Below the pieces are notes generated by a model. The model was not told where the DNA came from. It did no database searches and saw only the letters and a program-made list of their open reading frames with translations. Below, one piece after another: positions 7,639 to 57,637 of a stretch of DNA of 64,000 bases (positions are counted from its first letter, which is position 1; each line of letters opens with the position of its first letter). The stretch lies in NCBI GenBank assembly GCA_963804955.1, contig CAWDSQ010000030.1:64001-128000 (forward strand). Reading direction: 5' to 3'. This DNA comes from an uncultured delta proteobacterium. GTDB lineage: Bacteria; Desulfobacterota; WTBG01; CAIYCZ01; CAIRTM01. The translations under genes were made by a program, and so were the position numbers.

Positions 7639-9519
7639 ATGGAAAGACTTCTACCAAAGATCAACAGCCCTGAGGACCTGCGCAGGCTGAGCCTCAAGGA
7701 GCTTCCCGGCCTGGCTACAGAAATACGCGAGCTCATTATCGATACCGTTTCAAAAACCGGCGGCCATCTGGCGCCAAGCCTTGGCGTTGTGGAGCTCACC
7801 ATCGCGCTGCATTATGTCTTCAATACGCCCCGCGACAAGATCGTTTGGGATGTCGGGCATCAGGCCTATGCCCACAAGATACTCACCGGCCGCCGCGACG
7901 CTTTTCCGTCGCTGCGGCAGATGGGGGGCCTGTGCGGATTCCCCAAGCGCGAAGAGAGCCCGTATGATGCCTTCAACGTGGGGCACAGCAGCACCTCCAT
8001 CTCGGCAGCCCTCGGGATGGCCGAGTCGTGCAGGCTCAAGGGCGAGGACTGCAAGGCCATAGCCGTCATCGGCGACGGCGCTCTGGCGGCAGGCATGGCC
8101 TTTGAAGCGCTCAACCATGCCGGCCATATCAAGCGCGATCTGATCGTTATCCTGAACGACAACGAAATGTCCATATCTCCCAATGTCGGAGCGCTTTCAT
8201 CATCGCTGTCGCGCATCATTTCGGGCCAGGCGTATAACCGGTTTCGCGATAAGGTTAATGCCATGCTTGAAAAGATCCCGGGTATCGGCGAGTCGGTGAC
8301 GCGCATTGCCCGCCAGTCGGAAGGGTTTTTCAAGAGTATTTTTGTGCCGGGCCAGATTTTTGAGGAGCTGGGCTTTGTCTATATCGGCCCGGTTCTCGGG
8401 CACCGCATCGATCTGCTTGTTGACGATTTGCGCAATATTAAAAATCTTAAGGGCCCGATACTGCTGCATGTGATTACGCGCAAAGGCAAGGGCTACAAGC
8501 CCGCCGAGGACGACCCGACGGCTTTTCACGGCATCGGCGCGTTTGACCGGGAAACCGGCAAGCCGCTGAAGGGCAGCGGGGCGCCGTCCTACACAAAAGT
8601 GTTTGGTGATGCGATAGCCCGCATAGCAGCAGACAATCCGCAGGTCGTGGCAATCACCGCGGGCATGACCAGCGGCACGGGCCTTGAGAAATTTCAGCAG
8701 CAGTTTCCCGACCGCTTTTACGATGTGGGCATAGCCGAGCAGCATGCCATCACGTTCGCCGCCGGCATGGCAGCCCAGGGGCTGCGGCCCGTGGCCGCCA
8801 TCTACTCCACCTTTCTGCAGCGATGCTACGATCAGGTGCTGCACGATGTCTGCATGCAGAAGCTGCCGGTCGTGTTCATGCTCGACCGGGCAGGGGTCGT
8901 AGGCGAAGACGGGCCCACACATCACGGCCTTTTTGATATCTCCTACCTGCGCTTGCTGCCGAACATGGTCTTCATGGCCCCAGCAGATGAGAACGAGCTG
9001 CAGCATATGCTCTATACCGCTTTGGGCCTTGACTGCCCCGTTGCCATACGCTATCCGCGCGGCGCCGGCGCAGGGGTGCCCCTGGACCCCGAGCTGCAGT
9101 GCTTGCCGCTCGGGAAGGCGCAGGTGCTCAAGGACGGCACCGATGCCGCGGTGTTTGCCATCGGCAGCACCGTCCACCCGGCTCTCGAAGCGGCAGGGAT
9201 GCTGCAGCAGGAGGGCATTTCCTGCGCCGTGGTGAATGCCCGCTTCATCAAGCCCCTTGATGTCGACATGCTGCAAACTTTTGCCAAATCCGTTAAGGTG
9301 CTCGTAACAGTCGAGGAGAACGCCCTGCAGGGCGGTTTCGGCTCGGCAGTGCTTGAGGCCCTCCAGGAGCAGGGCTGCGCGGCTCGCGTATGCCGCATCG
9401 GCATTCCCGACCGGTTTGTCGAGCAGGGCTCGCAAAAGCAGCTTCGTGCCAAATACAGCCTCGATGCCCAGGGTATTGCCGCTACGGTGAAAAGAACGCT
9501 TGCAGATGGCCGGCCATAA
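7639..9519 (+). CDS. dxs: 1-deoxy-D-xylulose-5-phosphate synthase
   Basis: [25 protein letters not shown]...NDN TPP motif, [13 protein letters not shown]. Confidence 0.98.
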
Positions 9520-10262
9520 AAAAGAGCGCCTTGACAGCCTCGTTCTTGCCCGCGGCCTTGCCGCCGGGCTTGACAGGGCGCGCAGCCTCATCATGGCAGG
9601 CCTGGTGATTGTCGATGATCACCTGGCTGATAAACCCGGCCTCCTTATATCCCCTGATGCCTGTATCCGCCTTCGCGATGAATCATGCCCCTATGTGAGC
9701 CGGGGCGGACTTAAACTGGAAAAACCTCTTGATATCTTTCAGGTGCCTGTAGCGGGAAAGGTGTGCCTTGATGTGGGCGCCTCGACCGGAGGCTTTACCG
9801 ACTGCCTGCTGCAGCACGGCGCTGCCCGGGTGTATGCCGTTGACGTCGGCTATGGCCAGCTTGCCTGGCAGCTCCAGCAGGACAGCCGCGTGGTGCGGTT
9901 TGACCGCACCAATATAACAAAGCTGCAGCCCGCGGATATTGACCCTCCTGGCGATCTGGCCGTCATTGATGCATCGTTTACCTCCCTGCGGCATCTGCTT
10001 CAGCCCGTGCTCAGGCTGCTCGTGCCGGCAGGAGAACTGCTCTGTCTGGTGAAGCCGCAGTTTGAAGCCCGGCGCGGGGCGGCTGCGACAGGGAGGCATT
10101 GTGCGGGATGAAAAGCATTATCAGGAAGCGCTGCGCAGCGTCGCACTGGCCATGCGCAGCGCAGGGCTTTTTGTGAGCGGTATTGTTGAATCTCCCATAA
10201 GCGGAGCAAAGGGTAACCGGGAGTTTTTTATCTATGCACGCAAGCAGGGCATGAAAGCGTGA
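9506..10262 (+). CDS. tlyA: TlyA family rRNA methyltransferase (frameshift near 10075)
   Basis: [28 protein letters not shown]-terminus (GGIVRD...[12 protein letters not shown]) in another frame. Confidence 0.92.
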
Positions 10263-10319
10263 GGCTTTGTCAGAGCATGTAAGAACAATCAACTTAAACA
10301 CTGCGGGTGTTTTTGATTT

Positions 10320-10392
10320 GTCATGCTGAGCGTAGCGAAGATTCCATGCAGTGACAAAAAATTACGAGCCCCTTCACTTCGTTCAGGTCACA
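10320..10392. repeat. Palindromic intergenic repeat (GTCAT-CTGAGCG-AGCGAAG...CTTCACTTCGTTCAG type)
   Basis: Related copies at 16736-16807, 41131-41203 and, more diverged, 37460-37527 and 63054-63140. Confidence 0.65.
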
Positions 10393-10543
10393 ATTTAAAC
10401 TTTCCGTAGAGGCTCTCAGTAAAACATAGGAGAATGATTCTTAGATCGTAGATACTATGAAGGAAAGGATCATTTGACAGGCGTCACGTCTCGGATATGC
10501 TAAAAAAGTCACGTCAATAACTTTCAGCATAAAGGAGACAAAC

Positions 10544-11686
10544 ATGGCGAACAATCAAATGATCCAAACCGAGGCAAAGAATAGCACAGGTAAGCAGGTT
10601 TTGTACATATCCCTTGAACTGTCCAACAAGAAATGGAAACTGACGTTTGGGGACGGGCAACGCAGGAGGGAGCGAACAATAACATCAGCAGATCTTGAAG
10701 AGTTTAAGGAAGAGCTGGTCAAGGCCCGGAAGCATTTTAGACTGGATGAAGATTGCGCCATATACAGCTGTTATGAATCGGGACGAGACGGGTTTTGGAT
10801 ACATCGGTATTTGGAGAGCATAGGGATAAAGAATATCGTGGTGGACTCGGCCAGTATCGAAGTGAACCGGCGGCATCGGCGGGCCAAGACGGACCGGGTA
10901 GATGGGTTAAAGTTGTTAACCATGCTGATACGGCACTTGGGAGGAGAGCAGAAAGTCTGGAGTGTGGTACGGGTTCCGACACAGGAACAGGAAGATGAAC
11001 GGCGACTCAACCGAGAGAGGGATCGGCTGTTAAAGGAACGGGGAGCACATGTAAGCCGGATAAAGTCGCTACTGATATTGTATGGGATACATGCAAAGGT
11101 AGGCAGTAAATTTCTGAAGCTGCTTGAGGAAGTGCGAGCCTGGGATGGCAGCAAACTGCCAGAGTATATCGTGCAGGAGATGAAGCGGGAGTATGAACGG
11201 ATAGGGGTGCTGGACCTGCAGTTGAAGCAGATCAATGAAGAGAAGAAGCGGCAGCTTGCGGCAAGTCCTGAACAAATGCGCAAGGTAAGCAAGCTTGCCC
11301 GGATACGGGCAATTGGGCCGATCAGTTCATGGGATTTGATCTATGAGTTTTTTGGCTGGCGGGAATTCAAGAATGTGAAGCAGGTGGGAGGTGCAGCAGG
11401 TCTTGCGCCAATGCCCTACAGCAGCGGGGATATGCAGATTGAGCAAGGGATAAGCAAAGCGGGCAATCGGCGGATCCGAGCTTTGCTGATAGAGTTAGCC
11501 TGGGGATGGCTGAGATGGCAGCCTGGCAGTAAGCTAAGCACGTGGTTTCATGAGCGCTTTGGAGGGGGCAACAAACGAATGAGGCGAATAGGGATCGTGG
11601 CGCTGGCCAGAAAACTGCTCATAGCGCTGTGGAAGTATGTTGATCACGACATCGTGCCGGAAGGCGCGATACTAAAGATGGCATAA
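10544..11686 (+). CDS. IS110 family DEDD recombinase/transposase
   Basis: CYESGRDGFWIHRYL, AKTDRVD, GLAPMPYSSG (catalytic Ser region), ISKAGN, VALARKL. Confidence 0.95.
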   Translation: MANNQMIQTEAKNSTGKQVLYISLELSNKKWKLTFGDGQRRRERTITSADLEEFKEELVKARKHFRLDEDCAIYSCYESGRDGFWIHRYLESIGIKNIVVDSASIEVNRRHRRAKTDRVDGLKLLTMLIRHLGGEQKVWSVVRVPTQEQEDERRLNRERDRLLKERGAHVSRIKSLLILYGIHAKVGSKFLKLLEEVRAWDGSKLPEYIVQEMKREYERIGVLDLQLKQINEEKKRQLAASPEQMRKVSKLARIRAIGPISSWDLIYEFFGWREFKNVKQVGGAAGLAPMPYSSGDMQIEQGISKAGNRRIRALLIELAWGWLRWQPGSKLSTWFHERFGGGNKRMRRIGIVALARKLLIALWKYVDHDIVPEGAILKMA

Positions 11687-11719
11687 AGGACATACAACAG
11701 GAGGAAAAGGATTTGATAG

Positions 11720-11900
11720 GCATTCCAGTTGGTGAAGCCCTTCGTACCCGCCCTGGGTCTAAAAGCACCGTCTTTGTAGATTGAAGGCTTCTTAAACTGG
11801 TTGGACTGACGCCAATTGGCGCACGCAGTATGTGGATGCACGGTTATAATACCGGCACGGATAGAAGGTGGTTCCGGGCAAGGTTCCCGGAAAACGACAA
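11720..11900 (+). ncRNA. Putative bridge RNA (seekRNA) of the IS110 element; boundaries approximate
   Basis: Stem 11725-11743/11783-11800 encloses ACCCGCCCT (9/9 match to target) and GTAG; a second loop holds AGTATGT and ATAGAAG matching the circle junction. Confidence 0.75.
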
Positions 11901-12093
11901 GCCCAACCGGCCAAAACGGAATGAGTATCAAAAGATAAAGAAAGAAAAAAACAAAAAAAATTAACCCGAGGCTTGACAACGGTCCTCATAGAAGGGCGGG
12001 TGCCAACCCGCCGCAAGATTTTTTAAATTGATTCAACAGGGCATTGATTTTTTCATCGTGATGGTCTCCTGCACACACTGGTTTGGTTATCCT

Positions 12094-12480
12094 TCAGTCA
12101 TACATGACGGTAATCTCGCCTTCGTCAATTTGCTCCGAACGGCATTTAGGACAACGAGGGGGAGCGTCGAGGCAATACCTCCCGCCACACCTGCATGTTC
12201 CAGCAATAAATTCGATTCCTTTGTGATATTCATCTTCGGATATAGGCTCAACTTTTGTAGTCTCTCGTATAGCCTTATCATGTTCCGCACTTGCAACACA
12301 ATACGGTCCCGGCAGTCCTTTTAAGTAGCGCAAATGCAACTCTCCAAGTTCATCAAAACCTATAGACTTCGTCTTTCCACAATTCTCACAGCGAACGAGG
12401 TGAAAGTAAAACCCCCCACCGTGGTCAACAGTGAAAGTGTTACCGCATTTGCGGCATTTGGCTTTAACTTGATGTCCCAT
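12094..12480 (-). CDS. Hypothetical zinc-ribbon protein
   Basis: 128 aa with CRKC, CENC, CRC and CPKC motifs; SD GGAGGAGG upstream. Confidence 0.75.
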   Translation of the reverse strand: MGHQVKAKCRKCGNTFTVDHGGGFYFHLVRCENCGKTKSIGFDELGELHLRYLKGLPGPYCVASAEHDKAIRETTKVEPISEDEYHKGIEFIAGTCRCGGRYCLDAPPRCPKCRSEQIDEGEITVMYD

Positions 12481-12559
12481 TTTCTGATGCCTCCTCCATT
12501 ATAATCGAACAGATATGCACATACGAGAAAATCAATTTCTCGATGACAGCATCTATAGC

Positions 12560-54970: not shown

Positions 54971-55660
54971 ATGAGACTCACTATAAAAGATTTATCCGAG
55001 CTTTTAAACGTCACGGAAAAGACGATTCGTCGCTGGATAAAAGAGGGGAGCATACCTGCCTATAAAATCAATGGACAGTATCGCTTCAACCGCACGGAAA
55101 TTCTTGAATGGTCAACCTCACGGCGCTTGAATGCGCCGGTGGAAATATTTCAGGAGCCTGAATCAGAACAGGTGATGAGCCTGACGGATGCGCTCACCGC
55201 AGGCGGTGTTTTTTATCGCATAAGCGGCTCGGATAAAGAATCAGCGCTGAAGGCTATTGTCGAGGTATTGAGGCTTCCCGATGATGCCGACCGGGGCTAT
55301 CTGCTGCAGTTTCTTCTTGCCCGGGAGGCAATGTCATCGACCGGCATTGGCGACGGCATCGCAATACCCCATGTGCGCAATCCCATAGTGCTGCATGTGC
55401 CGCAGCCCATGATAACGCTCTGCTTCCTTGAAAAGCCGATACATTTTTCGTCTCTTGACGGGCAGCCGGTCAACTGCCTGTTCACGCTTGTTGCGCCGAC
55501 AGTGCGCACGCATCTGTTTCTGCTGTCACGGCTTTCCTTTGTGCTGCGGGATCCTGAATTTAAGCAAATGATTAAAGAGCAGCGCTCCCGGGAAGAGATA
55601 CTGCAAAAAGTCCATGATCTGGAAGCAGCATTAGCCTCCGACGGGGCAGGAGGTCTGTAA
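54971..55660 (+). CDS. Excisionase-type HTH fused to PTS EIIA(Ntr)-like domain
   Basis: LNVTEKTIRRWIKEGSIPAYKINGQYRF; STGIGDGIAIPH. Confidence 0.9.
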   Translation: MRLTIKDLSELLNVTEKTIRRWIKEGSIPAYKINGQYRFNRTEILEWSTSRRLNAPVEIFQEPESEQVMSLTDALTAGGVFYRISGSDKESALKAIVEVLRLPDDADRGYLLQFLLAREAMSSTGIGDGIAIPHVRNPIVLHVPQPMITLCFLEKPIHFSSLDGQPVNCLFTLVAPTVRTHLFLLSRLSFVLRDPEFKQMIKEQRSREEILQKVHDLEAALASDGAGGL

Positions 55661-55662
55661 CG

Positions 55663-57637
55663 GTGCTGCTGCTTCTTCTGGCCCTGGGAATCATTGTTAT
55701 AAGCGGTTGCGCTGCTCTGACAGTTTGGAACAAGCCCGTGCTCAGCAGCTGCATCGGCGCCGGCGGCACGGTGCTTGGCTGCGCTGTGGGCATCATCCCC
55801 GCGCTGGAGGTGCTCCTGGGAGGCGCCACCCGGTCGCTGCGCTGTGCCTGGAGCATGCCGTACGGGTCTTTTTTTATACAGCTTGACAGCCTTGTCCGCT
55901 TTTTTCCTTCTGCCGGTGTTTCTGCTCTCAGCCCTTGCCGCCGTCTATGGCGGGCAGTATCTGATGAAATATAAAGATACAAACAAGCTCGGGCTCGCAT
56001 GGTTTTTTTATACCCTCCTTGTTGCCAGCATGGCACTGGTGTGCCTGGCGCGCAACGCGGTCCTGTTTCTCATAGCCTGGGAAATAATGGCGCTTGCGTC
56101 TTTTTTTCTTGTGGCCTTCGAAAATGAAAAGCCGCAGGTGCGCAGGTCTTCATGGATATATATGGTTGCCACCCATCTGGGCACGGCCTGCCTGCTGCCG
56201 ATGTTTCTCATCTTCGGCGCCTCTGCCGGATCCCTTGACTTTGACCGGTTTGCTCACAGCCTGCCGCAGCCTTTGGCAAGCATCTGTTTTATCCTTGCGC
56301 TTATCGGGTTCGGCACAAAGGCCGGCATCATCCCCTTTCATGTGTGGCTCCCCGAGGCCCATCCTGCAGCCCCAAGCCATGTATCTGCCCTCATGTCGGG
56401 CATAATGATTAAAACCGGCATTTACGGCATAGTCCGCATGCTGACCTTTTTTGATGTGCCGCCCTTGTGGTGGGGCTGGCTGGTGCTTGCCATCGGCATT
56501 ATTTCCGGCGTGCTCGGCGTGCTGTTTGCCCTGGCGCAGCATGATCTTAAAGGCCTTCTTGCCTACCACAGCGTTGAGAATATCGGCATTATCATGATGG
56601 GGCTGGGAGTCGGCCTTATCGGCTGGAGCGCAGCTGTTCCCTCTGTTGCCATACTGGGTATGGCAGGCGGGCTTTTTCATGTAGTCAATCATGCGCTGTT
56701 CAAGGGCCTGCTCTTTCTGGGGGCCGGCTCCGTGTATCAGGCCGCGCATACCAGGGAGATCGACCATCTTGGCGGCCTTATCAAAAAAATGCCCTGTACC
56801 GGCGCCTGCTTTCTCGTCGGAGCAGTCGCCATTTCGGGCTTGCCGCCCCTGAATGGTTTTTTAAGTGAATTTTTAATCTTTCTCGGCTCGCTGCGCGGCG
56901 CGATTTCCATGAGCGCAGATGTTGCCGTGCCGCTTATCGGTGCTGTTGCGGGGCTGGCCCTCATCGGCGGGCTTGCGGCGGCCTGTTTCACCAAGGCCTT
57001 CGGCATAGTTTTTCTCGGTGAGCCGCGCTCGAAGCCTGCTGCCGATGCCCGTGAGTCCGGGCCTCTGATGGTGGCGCCGATGGTGCTGCTTGCCGCAGCC
57101 TGCGTTGCTGTGGGATTCCTCGGCTTCTGCATCGTGCCGGCCATGTCCGGGGTCGTTTCAGGCATACTTGGCTTTGATGCCGGCCCCGAGCTGAAGATAG
57201 CGGGAGGCTGTCTTGGCTCTATTACGGCCGCATCGATAGCGCTGCTGCTGCTGGTGGCCTGCTTCGCCTGGCTCCGCCGCCTGCTGCTGTCGGGCAGGGA
57301 GGTCGGCAGCGCCGTTACCTGGGACTGCGGCTACACAGCGCCGACCCCGCGCATGCAGTATACGGCCTCGTCTTTTGCCCAGCCCGTCACCCATTTTTTC
57401 GGTTCTTTACTGGGCACAAAAAAGCACCTGCAGATCGGCGGGCAGTATTTCCCCGGCGCGGCGGAATTTGCAACGCACACGCAGGATATGGGCTATGAAA
57501 AACTCTACCGGCCTGTTTTTACGGCGGTGAAGCAGTTCTGCGAGCGCTTCCTTGTTCTGCAGCATGGCCGCATGCACCTGTATGTGCTGTCTATCGTGGC
57601 AACGCTCGTGGTGCTGCTTGTCTGGCAATTGGGGTAG
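55663..57637 (+). CDS. Ehr/Hyf antiporter-like membrane subunit (HyfB-like), frameshift near 55895
   Basis: KAGIIPFHVWLPEAHPAAPSHVSALMSG, LAYHSVENIG, PRMQYTASSF. Confidence 0.88.

Follow-up and report, generated by a model that had tools for sequence, protein, structure and literature searches.

The stretch analyzed here, referred to as the window, comprises 64,000 nucleotides from an uncultured delta proteobacterium (GenBank assembly GCA_963804955.1, contig CAWDSQ010000030.1, positions 64,001 to 128,000 of the forward strand), and positions below are counted from its first letter. On the + strand, positions 10450-11994 are occupied by an insertion sequence (IS) of the IS110 family, which is 1,545 bp long when the dinucleotide core AG is counted at each end. 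The element carries a gene for a recombinase of 380 amino acids (aa), preceded by a noncoding left end of 94 nt (10450-10543) and followed by a noncoding right end of 308 nt (11687-11994). Comparison with relatives suggests that the right end very probably encodes a two-part bridge (seek) RNA that guides the choice of insertion site. An earlier sequence-only reading of the same DNA had proposed an IS110 bridge RNA at this place, and the proposal is upheld by the family and predicted fold of the protein, the layout of the guides, their covariation with the flanking DNA in two sets of relatives, and the covariation of the RNA helices. Feature coordinates are collected in Table 1.

The insertion sequence, its copies and its target

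The genome, assembled to 4.26 Mb in 36 contigs and 87% complete, contains four full copies of the element, each of 1545-1546 bp and sharing 98-100% identity. The left junction of all four reads ..GT-AG-ATACTATG and the right junction of all four reads ..CATAGA-AG-GG(C/A)GGGTGCYAACCCGCC, with the sequence diverging outside both. Because these junctions are common to the four copies and the flanks differ beyond them, the limits 10450-11994 could be set and the target defined as GT-AG-GGCGGGT on the + strand, that is, ACCCGCC-CT-AC on the opposite strand. The AG dinucleotide is found at both ends in every copy, and GT-AG-ATACT is found at all six left-end junctions of the genome, those of the four full copies included. 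Three bases and one base inside the core, respectively, lie the sub-terminal inverted repeats CTATGAAGG and CCTCATAG, which match at eight positions with a one-base indel. Relatives keep AGAT[A/G/C]CTATG at the left end.

The right half of the target belongs to a repeated palindrome, GGCGGGTGCYAACCCGCC (GGCGGGT-GCYA-ACCCGCC), which the genome matches 16 times when up to two mismatches are allowed, compared to none for the control. A looser pattern, GG[CT]GGGT..ACCC[GA]CC, is found at 23 loci, compared to one for the reversed control. Exact IS-free GTAGGGCGGGT sites number three (C5, C24 and C29), and an intact GTTCGTAGGGCGGGTGCTAACCCGCC adjoins one of the copies on the opposite strand. The sequence-only reading had named a CT/AG core, the target ACCCGCC-CT-AC and a repetitive extragenic palindrome (REP) as the destination, to be checked by aligning other copies and their flanks. 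In that alignment all four genome copies sit at the same target, and an uninterrupted site agrees with them on both core and target. The description of the target as a repeated palindrome likewise stands, while the term REP does not fit well, the copy number of about 23 loci being low for a classical one. REPs are short imperfect intergenic palindromes, repeated many times and often arranged in inverted pairs, usually with a cognate Y1 transposase (RAYT) in the genome. Two hits to the Y1-transposase family PF01797 are present in this genome. The target family is thus a small, low-copy repeated palindrome rather than a classical high-copy REP.

Several further observations concern the palindromes. 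Outside the window, some also form inverted pairs at a distance of about 40 bp, the spacer being conserved (C24:162355-162440, C24:165118-165200 and C33:120-185), an arrangement that resembles the paired REP units (bacterial interspersed mosaic elements, BIMEs) of Pseudomonas and E. coli. At C29:28273 (- strand, outside the window), GTAGGGTGGGT represents the target with one C-to-T change, which would leave an rG:dT pair with the guide. Such a mismatch is tolerated by IS621 in the data cited from PMC11208160, and this site may be an additional landing site.

Incomplete copies are present as well, including a 310-bp left-end fragment (93% identity) and a relic of about 170 bp (72%). Solo left ends were recorded outside the window at C24:164018, C7:537272, C7:252707 and C1 ~55650-55825, all of them after GT-AG; they measure 25 nt (in the case located 36 bp upstream of a full copy), 14 nt, 310 bp and about 170 bp. 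After the 310-bp remnant, the opposite strand carries an empty palindrome resembling the target. These solo ends may have originated by aberrant recombination or by deletion. The genome also encodes two distant IS110-family homologues of the window recombinase, at C36:53453-54466 (27% identity) and C26:95295-95963 (24%).

The recombinase itself was assigned by profile and by fold. It matches the NCBIfam model NF033542 ('IS110 family RNA-guided transposase') with 170.7 bits over a cut-off of 140, and the Pfam model PF02371 (Transposase_20) with 60.7 bits. An AlphaFold model built on a 14-sequence alignment has a mean predicted local distance difference test score (pLDDT) of 75.1 and a predicted template modeling score (pTM) of 0.53, with low confidence at residues 102-118 and 290-306. 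Among PDB structures, Foldseek matches it best to the synaptic complex of ISCro4 (9t56_A; E 5.3e-12; TM 0.72, normalized by target length) and to complexes of IS621 (8wt9 and 8wt6) at E 1e-10 to 2e-9 (8wt9_A at 9.8e-11). Since phmmer found no match between the recombinase and PDB sequences at a threshold of 0.001, a family profile was needed for comparison at the sequence level; it aligns residues 219-363, within the Tnp domain, to ISCro4 and IS621 at E ~1e-9. The alignment places the family motif GLAPtPYsSG on GLTPRRYESG of IS621, with S294-G295 falling on ESG; the corresponding S241-G242 of IS621 form its catalytic serine loop as described in the cited part of PMC11208158. In the window protein, the motif reads GLAPMPYSSG (residues 286-295), and G286, L287, P289, S294 and G295 are invariant in an alignment of homologues designated A1. 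The segment AKTDRVDG (KTDRVD) corresponds to the D102/D105 motif. The proposed catalytic residues are E25, E78, D117, D120 and S294-G295.

Guides and scaffold of the predicted RNA

Relatives were gathered from three sources. Among 60 related genomes, only one holds a homologue at E<=1e-30 (L010, 54% identity), and wider collections were therefore used: a genome collection, which gave 80 loci at 40-58% identity from 566 confirmed, and metagenomes, which gave 80 loci at 43-97% identity. The hosts extend from Desulfobacterota to Chloroflexota, Gemmatimonadota and Burkholderiales, and at least 7,998 proteins lie at E<=1e-40 among the 8,000 candidates scored. Loci without exact GGATAGAAG/CATAGAAG anchors or with a short flank were dropped from the counts, which left 53 of 82 loci in the genome set and 51 of 80 in the metagenome set.

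For the 5′ target guide, as the sequence-only reading had noted, ACCCGCCCT (11746-11754) is the exact reverse complement of AGGGCGGGT (11993-12001), the core plus the right flank. On both strands of the 64-kb window, ACCCGCCCT occurs only twice, in the guide and in the flank, where 0.54 occurrences are expected by chance and 10 of 100 shuffles attain two. Across relatives, the reverse complement of the seven non-core bases of each right flank was sought over the 110 nt that precede the donor region. In the genome set (53 distinct RNAs), 26 RNAs contain it without mismatch, 18 with one mismatch and nine with two, compared to a permuted-flank baseline of 1.0%, 14.4% and 59.5% at zero, one and two mismatches, and all matches with at most one mismatch lie 108-123 nt upstream of the GGATAGAAG donor anchor. 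In the metagenome set (51 RNAs), the numbers with zero, one, two and three mismatches are 32, 9, 8 and 2, and permuted flanks are matched exactly in 0.7%. The covariance of guides with targets in homologues that the sequence-only reading had named as a check is thus seen in both sets. A 9-mer test that included the core found 9 of 56 guides exact; it is weaker than the 7-mer test because the bases facing the core are CG or GG in many relatives. In many of the loci L016-L095, CG or GG replaces CT at the guide bases facing the AG core, and these bases run into the base of the inner hairpin.

The result is clearest in three metagenome loci. L097, L098 and L099 encode recombinases 85%, 84% and 76% identical to that of the window and keep the RNA scaffold almost letter for letter. 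Their 5′ target guides are TCTGCCCCT, GCGCACCCT and ACCCAACCT, respectively, and each is complementary to its own right flank at nine of nine positions. The three loci form a natural reprogramming, or guide-swap, series. A fourth metagenome element, at 97% identity, has the same guide and the same target next to a different left flank.

The 3′ target guide is short. GTAG is found at 11776-11779 and again at 10448-10451, as left flank plus core; it fits all six left junctions of the genome, and the longer TGTAG fits three of the six. By themselves, both this match and the 6/7 match of AGTATGT to the left end, as first proposed, are at chance level, and they gain meaning only through their fixed place in the family alignment. 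The alignment column of GTAG covaries with the left flanks: in 44 RNAs (two more were excluded for a missing anchor), the mean contiguous match to the non-core left flank is 3.0, compared to 0.51 with permuted flanks.

For the donor guides, the tests differed between the two sides. An exact 5-mer test of the 5′ donor guide succeeded in 15 of 51 relatives; since the first base of the 5-mer varies, it was replaced by a column-wise test, in which the RNA base facing the variable left-end position 5 is complementary in 45 of the 51 (A-T 22/25, C-G 6/7, G-C 17/18). The five pairs of AGTAT are thereby retained from the original 7-nt proposal. The following GT (11832-33), neither conserved nor core-complementary across relatives, is withdrawn from it, its one match being coincidental. 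On the other side, ATAGAAG occurs at 11861-11867 and at 11988-11994 (7/7), exactly where it had been located. Because this guide is near-invariant in relatives, it shows no covariation: GGATAGAAG occurs at 72 of the 82 loci from genomes and at 66 of the 80 from metagenomes, with equal conservation of CATAGAAG at the right terminus.

The guides are held in a scaffold of conserved helices. The target-binding domain is closed by an outer stem, CCAGTT (11725-11730) with AACTGG (11795-11800), followed by a second stem, GAAGCCCTTC (GAAGCC-C-TTC, 11734-11743) with GAAGGCTTC (11783-11791). The sequence-only reading had given these stem strings, CCAGTT..GAAGCCCTTC and GAAGGCTTC..AACTGG, correctly, and likewise the hairpin CGGT-TATAAT-ACCG at 11841-11854, the helix of which covaries. 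Its simple second loop around the donor guides gives way to a multiloop, closed by a further stem. This stem shows several pair types in the family and has 11797-11800 in common with the outer stem of the target domain. Within the target loop, the inner hairpin is formed by GGTC (11756-59) and CACC (11766-69), where the C11759/C11766 mismatch leaves three pairs.

Covariation was counted over four helices with 25 pairs, namely the target-loop stem, the inner hairpin and two hairpins on the donor side, one preceding the donor guide and the other separating the two guides. Pairing in the family amounts to 89.4% for helix 1 and 91.2% for helix 2, with changes on both sides in 7 of 8 and 5 of 5 pairs; for helix 4 it is 95.5%, with such changes in 6 of 8 pairs. 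Over all four, 90.6% of the cells are paired, compared to 34.0-40.5% when the partners are slid, and the covariation score is 0.403, compared to at most 0.103. None of 500 shuffles attained the observed value on any of five measures. RNAalifold predicted 22 pairs from 67 distinct sequences, with compensatory changes in 19. G-U pairs are numerous and compatible with transcription of the + strand only. In the host genome, the predicted RNA stretch 11725-11910 is 100% identical in all four copies.

Table 1. Positions in the window of the insertion sequence, its recombinase gene, the predicted RNA and associated features
Feature	Positions	Strand	Basis
Left junction: target left half GT (10448-10449) and core AG (10450-10451)	10448-10451	+	Six left junctions, empty site
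Whole insertion sequence	10450-11994	+	Four near-identical genome copies; flanks differ beyond the limits
Left sub-terminal inverted repeat CTATGAAGG	10455-10463	+	Pairs with CCTCATAG, one additional A
Promoter-like TTGACA-16-TATGCT, upstream of recombinase gene	10474-10501	+	Consensus scan, 10/12 matches
Recombinase gene, 380 aa; RuvC-like domain, coiled coil, Tnp domain	10544-11686	+	Pfam, NCBIfam, predicted fold
Predicted bridge/seek RNA, ~186 nt	11725-11910	+	Ends estimated from outermost covarying stems
Target-binding domain: stems enclosing target loop and inner hairpin	11725-11800	+	Direct reading, family covariation
5′ target guide ACCCGCC-CT, predicted to pair with + strand AG-GGCGGGT	11746-11754	+	9/9 complementary; family covariation
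3′ target guide (T)GT-AG, identical to left flank and core, predicted to pair with - strand	11775-11779	+	Junctions, family match
Donor-multiloop closing stem CUGGUUGG / CCAACCGG	11797-11804 / 11903-11910	+	RNAalifold on 67 sequences; 8 pairs read directly
Hairpin CGCC-AATT-GGCG before donor guide (helix 3)	11810-11821	+	82.4% paired in family
5′ donor guide AGTAT, predicted to pair with + strand ATACT (10452-10456) of left IS end	11827-11831	+	Column covariation
Hairpin between donor guides, CGGT (11841-44)-TATAAT-ACCG (11851-54) with outer pairs	11835-11858	+	Helix 4
3′ donor guide ATAGA-AG, identical to right IS end and core, predicted to pair with - strand	11861-11867	+	Conservation
Predicted hairpin TTCCGGG-CAAGGTT-CCCGGAA inside multiloop	11872-11892	+	Single-sequence fold; relatives with a hairpin there
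Outward-facing TTGACA	11973-11978	+	17 nt upstream of TACTAT (10453-10458) in the would-be circle junction
Right sub-terminal inverted repeat CCTCATAG (11984-91) and terminus with core AG (11993-94)	11984-11994	+	Direct reading, copies, relatives
Target right half GGCGGGT (11995-12001) in palindrome GGCGGGT-GCCA-ACCCGCC	11995-12012	+	Follows all four copies

Proposed mechanism and alternative explanations

Collectively, these results suggest with high confidence that the locus is an intact IS110-family element of the IS1111 layout, the right end of which encodes an RNA of about 186 nt with two domains that would direct the recombinase to GT-AG-GGCGGGT. By analogy with IS621, ISCro4 and ISEc11, the RNA would be made with, or downstream of, the recombinase message and then bound by the 380-aa recombinase. 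In the first domain, an internal loop enclosed by stems, ACCCGCC-CT would pair with the + strand of the target (core AG and GGCGGGT), and on the 3′ side (T)GT-AG would pair with the - strand of the left target half and core. In the second domain, a stem-closed multiloop, AGTAT would pair with ATACT of the left IS end and ATAGA-AG with the - strand of the right IS end and core. The complex would then join the junction of the circularized IS, CATAGA-AG-ATACT, to the target GT-AG-GGCGGGT, exchanging strands at the AG/CT core with no target duplication, through a proposed active site consisting of the RuvC-like residues E25/E78/D117/D120 and S294-G295 of the Tnp domain. The sequence-only description of the element as intact and programmable would follow from the same letters. 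What the analysis shows is the anatomy, the target, the covariation of the guides with the flanks and of the helices, and the family and fold of the protein; transcription, RNA processing, protein binding, the circle with its junction promoter and current activity are inferred.

The spacing TTGACA-N17-TACTAT, which would arise on circularization, is a predicted circle-junction promoter, and junction promoters have been described for the family (PMC11187229, cited in part; PMC12288879). Over 10300-12150, the scan yielded the promoter-like sequence upstream of the recombinase gene as its sole site, compared to a mean of 2.3 in shuffles, and it is therefore weak evidence. At 11920-11960 of the window, an A-rich tract, AAAAGATAAAGAAAGAAAAAAACAAAAAAAA, separates the predicted RNA from the terminal TTGACA and inverted repeat. 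The IS is flanked by convergent open reading frames at 9500-10111 (+) and 12094-12480 (-). Without the IS, the palindrome together with GCAAGATTTTTT would look like a shared terminator hairpin; the terminator scan made no call there.

A number of observations weigh against the proposed reading. First, with regard to the protein, PF01548 (DEDD_Tnp_IS110) scores 24.6 bits, under its cut-off of 29, and the first catalytic acid is apparently a glutamate (E25, window 10616-10618; LELS/FELS), where IS621 has the aspartate D11. The equivalence of E25 to D11 was drawn from its place at the end of strand 1, not from superposition. Glutamate is found at this place in 13 of the 14 sequences of alignment A1 and, by regular expression, in 75 of the 80 loci L016-L095, with aspartate in two and the acid undetected in three. 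Second, with regard to the RNA, the single-sequence fold of the whole right end is no better than that of shuffles (z -1.29), so that the structure rests on the comparison with relatives; in the lowest-energy fold, part of the 5′ target guide is paired with GGGU; the inner hairpin of the target loop is short, with three standard pairs and a mismatch; and the bases after AGTAT have no core complementarity, unlike the donor guide of IS621. An Rfam 15 scan of 10000-12500 gave no match at E<=1, which means that no curated family covers this RNA. The anchor-based dropping of loci from the counts belongs here too. Third, with regard to expression, nothing promoter-like was found by the promoter scan directly upstream of the predicted RNA, and no intrinsic terminator was found by the terminator scan after it. 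In the lake metatranscriptome X2, the RNA is covered by a single 151-nt contig over 11728-11878, with one difference, from a library that may contain DNA. Another contig of this library covers 11966-12013 and continues into a different flank. Of three RNA libraries compared, X1 gave contigs over part of the recombinase gene only, with differences, and X4 gave no match; of five RNA runs, two contain part of the stretch, with a share of words of 0.05. Because the libraries may hold DNA, these contigs prove neither transcription nor its absence.

Three alternative explanations have been weighed. In the first, the functional RNA would be the short 5′ domain only, of about 76 nt (11725-11800, a 'short seekRNA'), and the donor matches would be kept for another reason, for example, as a protein-binding site or processing signal. 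The cited part of PMC11187229 provides a precedent, as ISEc11 yielded an abundant seekRNA of 70-100 nt which held the target matches only and sufficed for movement; the invariance of the 3′ donor guide, which precludes covariation, and the lack of core pairing by the 5′ donor guide agree with it. This explanation appears rather unlikely nonetheless, as the 5′ donor guide does covary with the variable left-end base in the large majority of relatives, the helices around the donor guides covary, and, in many IS1111 orthologues, Durrant et al. report that the nucleotides which bind the donor belong to a multiloop (PMC11208160, as far as cited here).

The second alternative accepts the bridge-RNA gene as genuine but regards the element as an immobile fossil in this genome, its matches being a record of past insertions. 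There is perhaps a small chance that this is so. The recombinase frame is split by a frameshift in one of the four full copies, which also weighs against the description of the element as intact, several left ends are truncated or solo, and the right flank of one copy reads AGGACGGGT. Against these signs of decay stand the three intact recombinase frames at 98-100% identity, the identity of the RNA region in all four copies, the 97%-identical metagenome element at the same target with a different left flank, and the three perfect empty sites left in the genome.

It is very improbable that the right end is merely a structured 3′ untranslated region or a regulatory small RNA, with the protein picking the site and the matches arising from a copied palindrome or by chance: the target is indeed palindromic, so that ACCCGCC is also the 3′ arm of the palindrome, two of the matches are at chance level alone and no Rfam model matches, but the guide varies with the flank at a fixed RNA position in two independent sets that include non-palindromic targets, proteins 76-85% identical use the same scaffold with different targets, each matched 9/9 by its own guide, and published deletion and reprogramming of family members show that the RNA is required (PMC11187229 and PMC11208160, in the parts cited).

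Relation to known systems and significance

The two-domain RNA favored here belongs to a known kind of system, the IS1111 form of the one that Durrant et al. and Siddiquee et al. reported in 2024. The sequence-only reading had placed the element in an IS110/IS1111 class; membership of the IS110 family stands, and the arrangement is corrected to that of IS1111, in which the RNA lies downstream of the gene and the top-strand-complementary guide precedes the other. The layout was assigned by arrangement, repeats, guide order and motif, not by tree, and is to be read as such. According to the cited part of PMC11187229, IS1111 elements have their longer noncoding region downstream of the gene, and in their RNA the match that complements the top strand comes 5′ of the one for the bottom strand, the opposite of the order in the IS110 group. 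Sub-terminal inverted repeats of about 7-17 bp are a further mark of the IS1111 group. The bridge RNA of IS1111 elements is located in the right end, and the donor guides are often in a multiloop (PMC11208160, cited in part). Here, ACCCGCCCT, complementary to the + strand, precedes GTAG, identical to the + strand.

Compared to ISEc11, ISKpn4, ISPa11 and ISPst6, as characterized in the cited part of PMC11187229, the element shares several features. First, the longer noncoding region is downstream and the inverted repeats are sub-terminal. Second, the guide order is the same and the matches overlap at the insertion point. Third, the recombinase has the GL-P----SG motif, and insertion is site-specific without true target duplication. 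ISPa11 and other members of the IS1111 family also target repeated palindromes. The recombinase here, at 380 aa, is longer than the 330-350 aa given there for IS1111-family transposases. The target and guides differ from those of the four elements, and the element described here is known from sequence alone.

Compared to IS621 and ISCro4 (PMC11208160 and PMC11208158, cited in part; PDB 8wt6, 8wt9 and 9t56), the recombinase has the same predicted fold (Foldseek E 5e-12 to 2e-9), and the RNA would have two binding regions, each with a long 5′ and a short 3′ guide for the two opposite strands, overlapping at a CT/AG core. The format of the target, 7 nt, CT and 2 nt, is shared as well, with ACCCGCC-CT-AC here and ATCAGGC-CT-AC in IS621 (PMC11208160, as cited), and in both cases it lies in a repeated palindrome. 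In contrast to both elements, the RNA is downstream rather than upstream of the gene, so that the gene is reversed with respect to the core; a multiloop holds the donor guides, of which the 5′ one pairs over 5 nt and not with the core, and the sub-terminal repeats are longer. The first acid differs from that of IS621, and at the sequence level only the Tnp domain is similar to IS621 and ISCro4. The IS110-family elements ISPpu9 and ISPpu10 of Pseudomonas putida are likewise inserted at a constant point within repeated extragenic palindromes, frequently in inverted pairs, with AG at both ends and with partial or modular derivatives in the same genome, but their bridge RNA is upstream of the gene, as in the IS110 group (PMC12288879). 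Downstream of ISPpu9, the small RNA Ssr9 forms a hitch-hiking module of its own, which transposition does not require (PMC12288879).

Four features of the element are worth recording: the length of 380 aa, glutamate as the first acid, the absence of core pairing by the 5′ donor guide, and the CG/GG bases that face the core in relatives. Tentatively, the element may represent a very large IS1111-like subfamily that crosses phyla and handles the core unlike IS621, with the protein partly recognizing the core and only the target loop freely programmable. This possibility, which we consider doubtful at present, is raised because the donor ends are near-invariant, the 5′ donor guide has no core pairing and the core bases of the target guide are often CG/GG, and because the first acid is glutamate and the recombinase is 30-50 aa longer than the described IS1111 transposases. 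That only the target loop would be freely programmable is suggested by the guide-swap series of L097-L099.

Bridge and seek RNA recombinases are under development as programmable DNA-insertion tools, for which natural diversity is the raw material. The element leaves what is known of the mechanism unchanged. It contributes an example, readable throughout, of the less studied IS1111 arrangement, with the target, the four guide segments, the helices and the likely limits of the RNA obtained by comparison. In close relatives, nature has redirected this scaffold to other 11-bp sites. The element would also account for four insertions in a small palindrome family of the host genome, where three further perfect landing sites are predicted.

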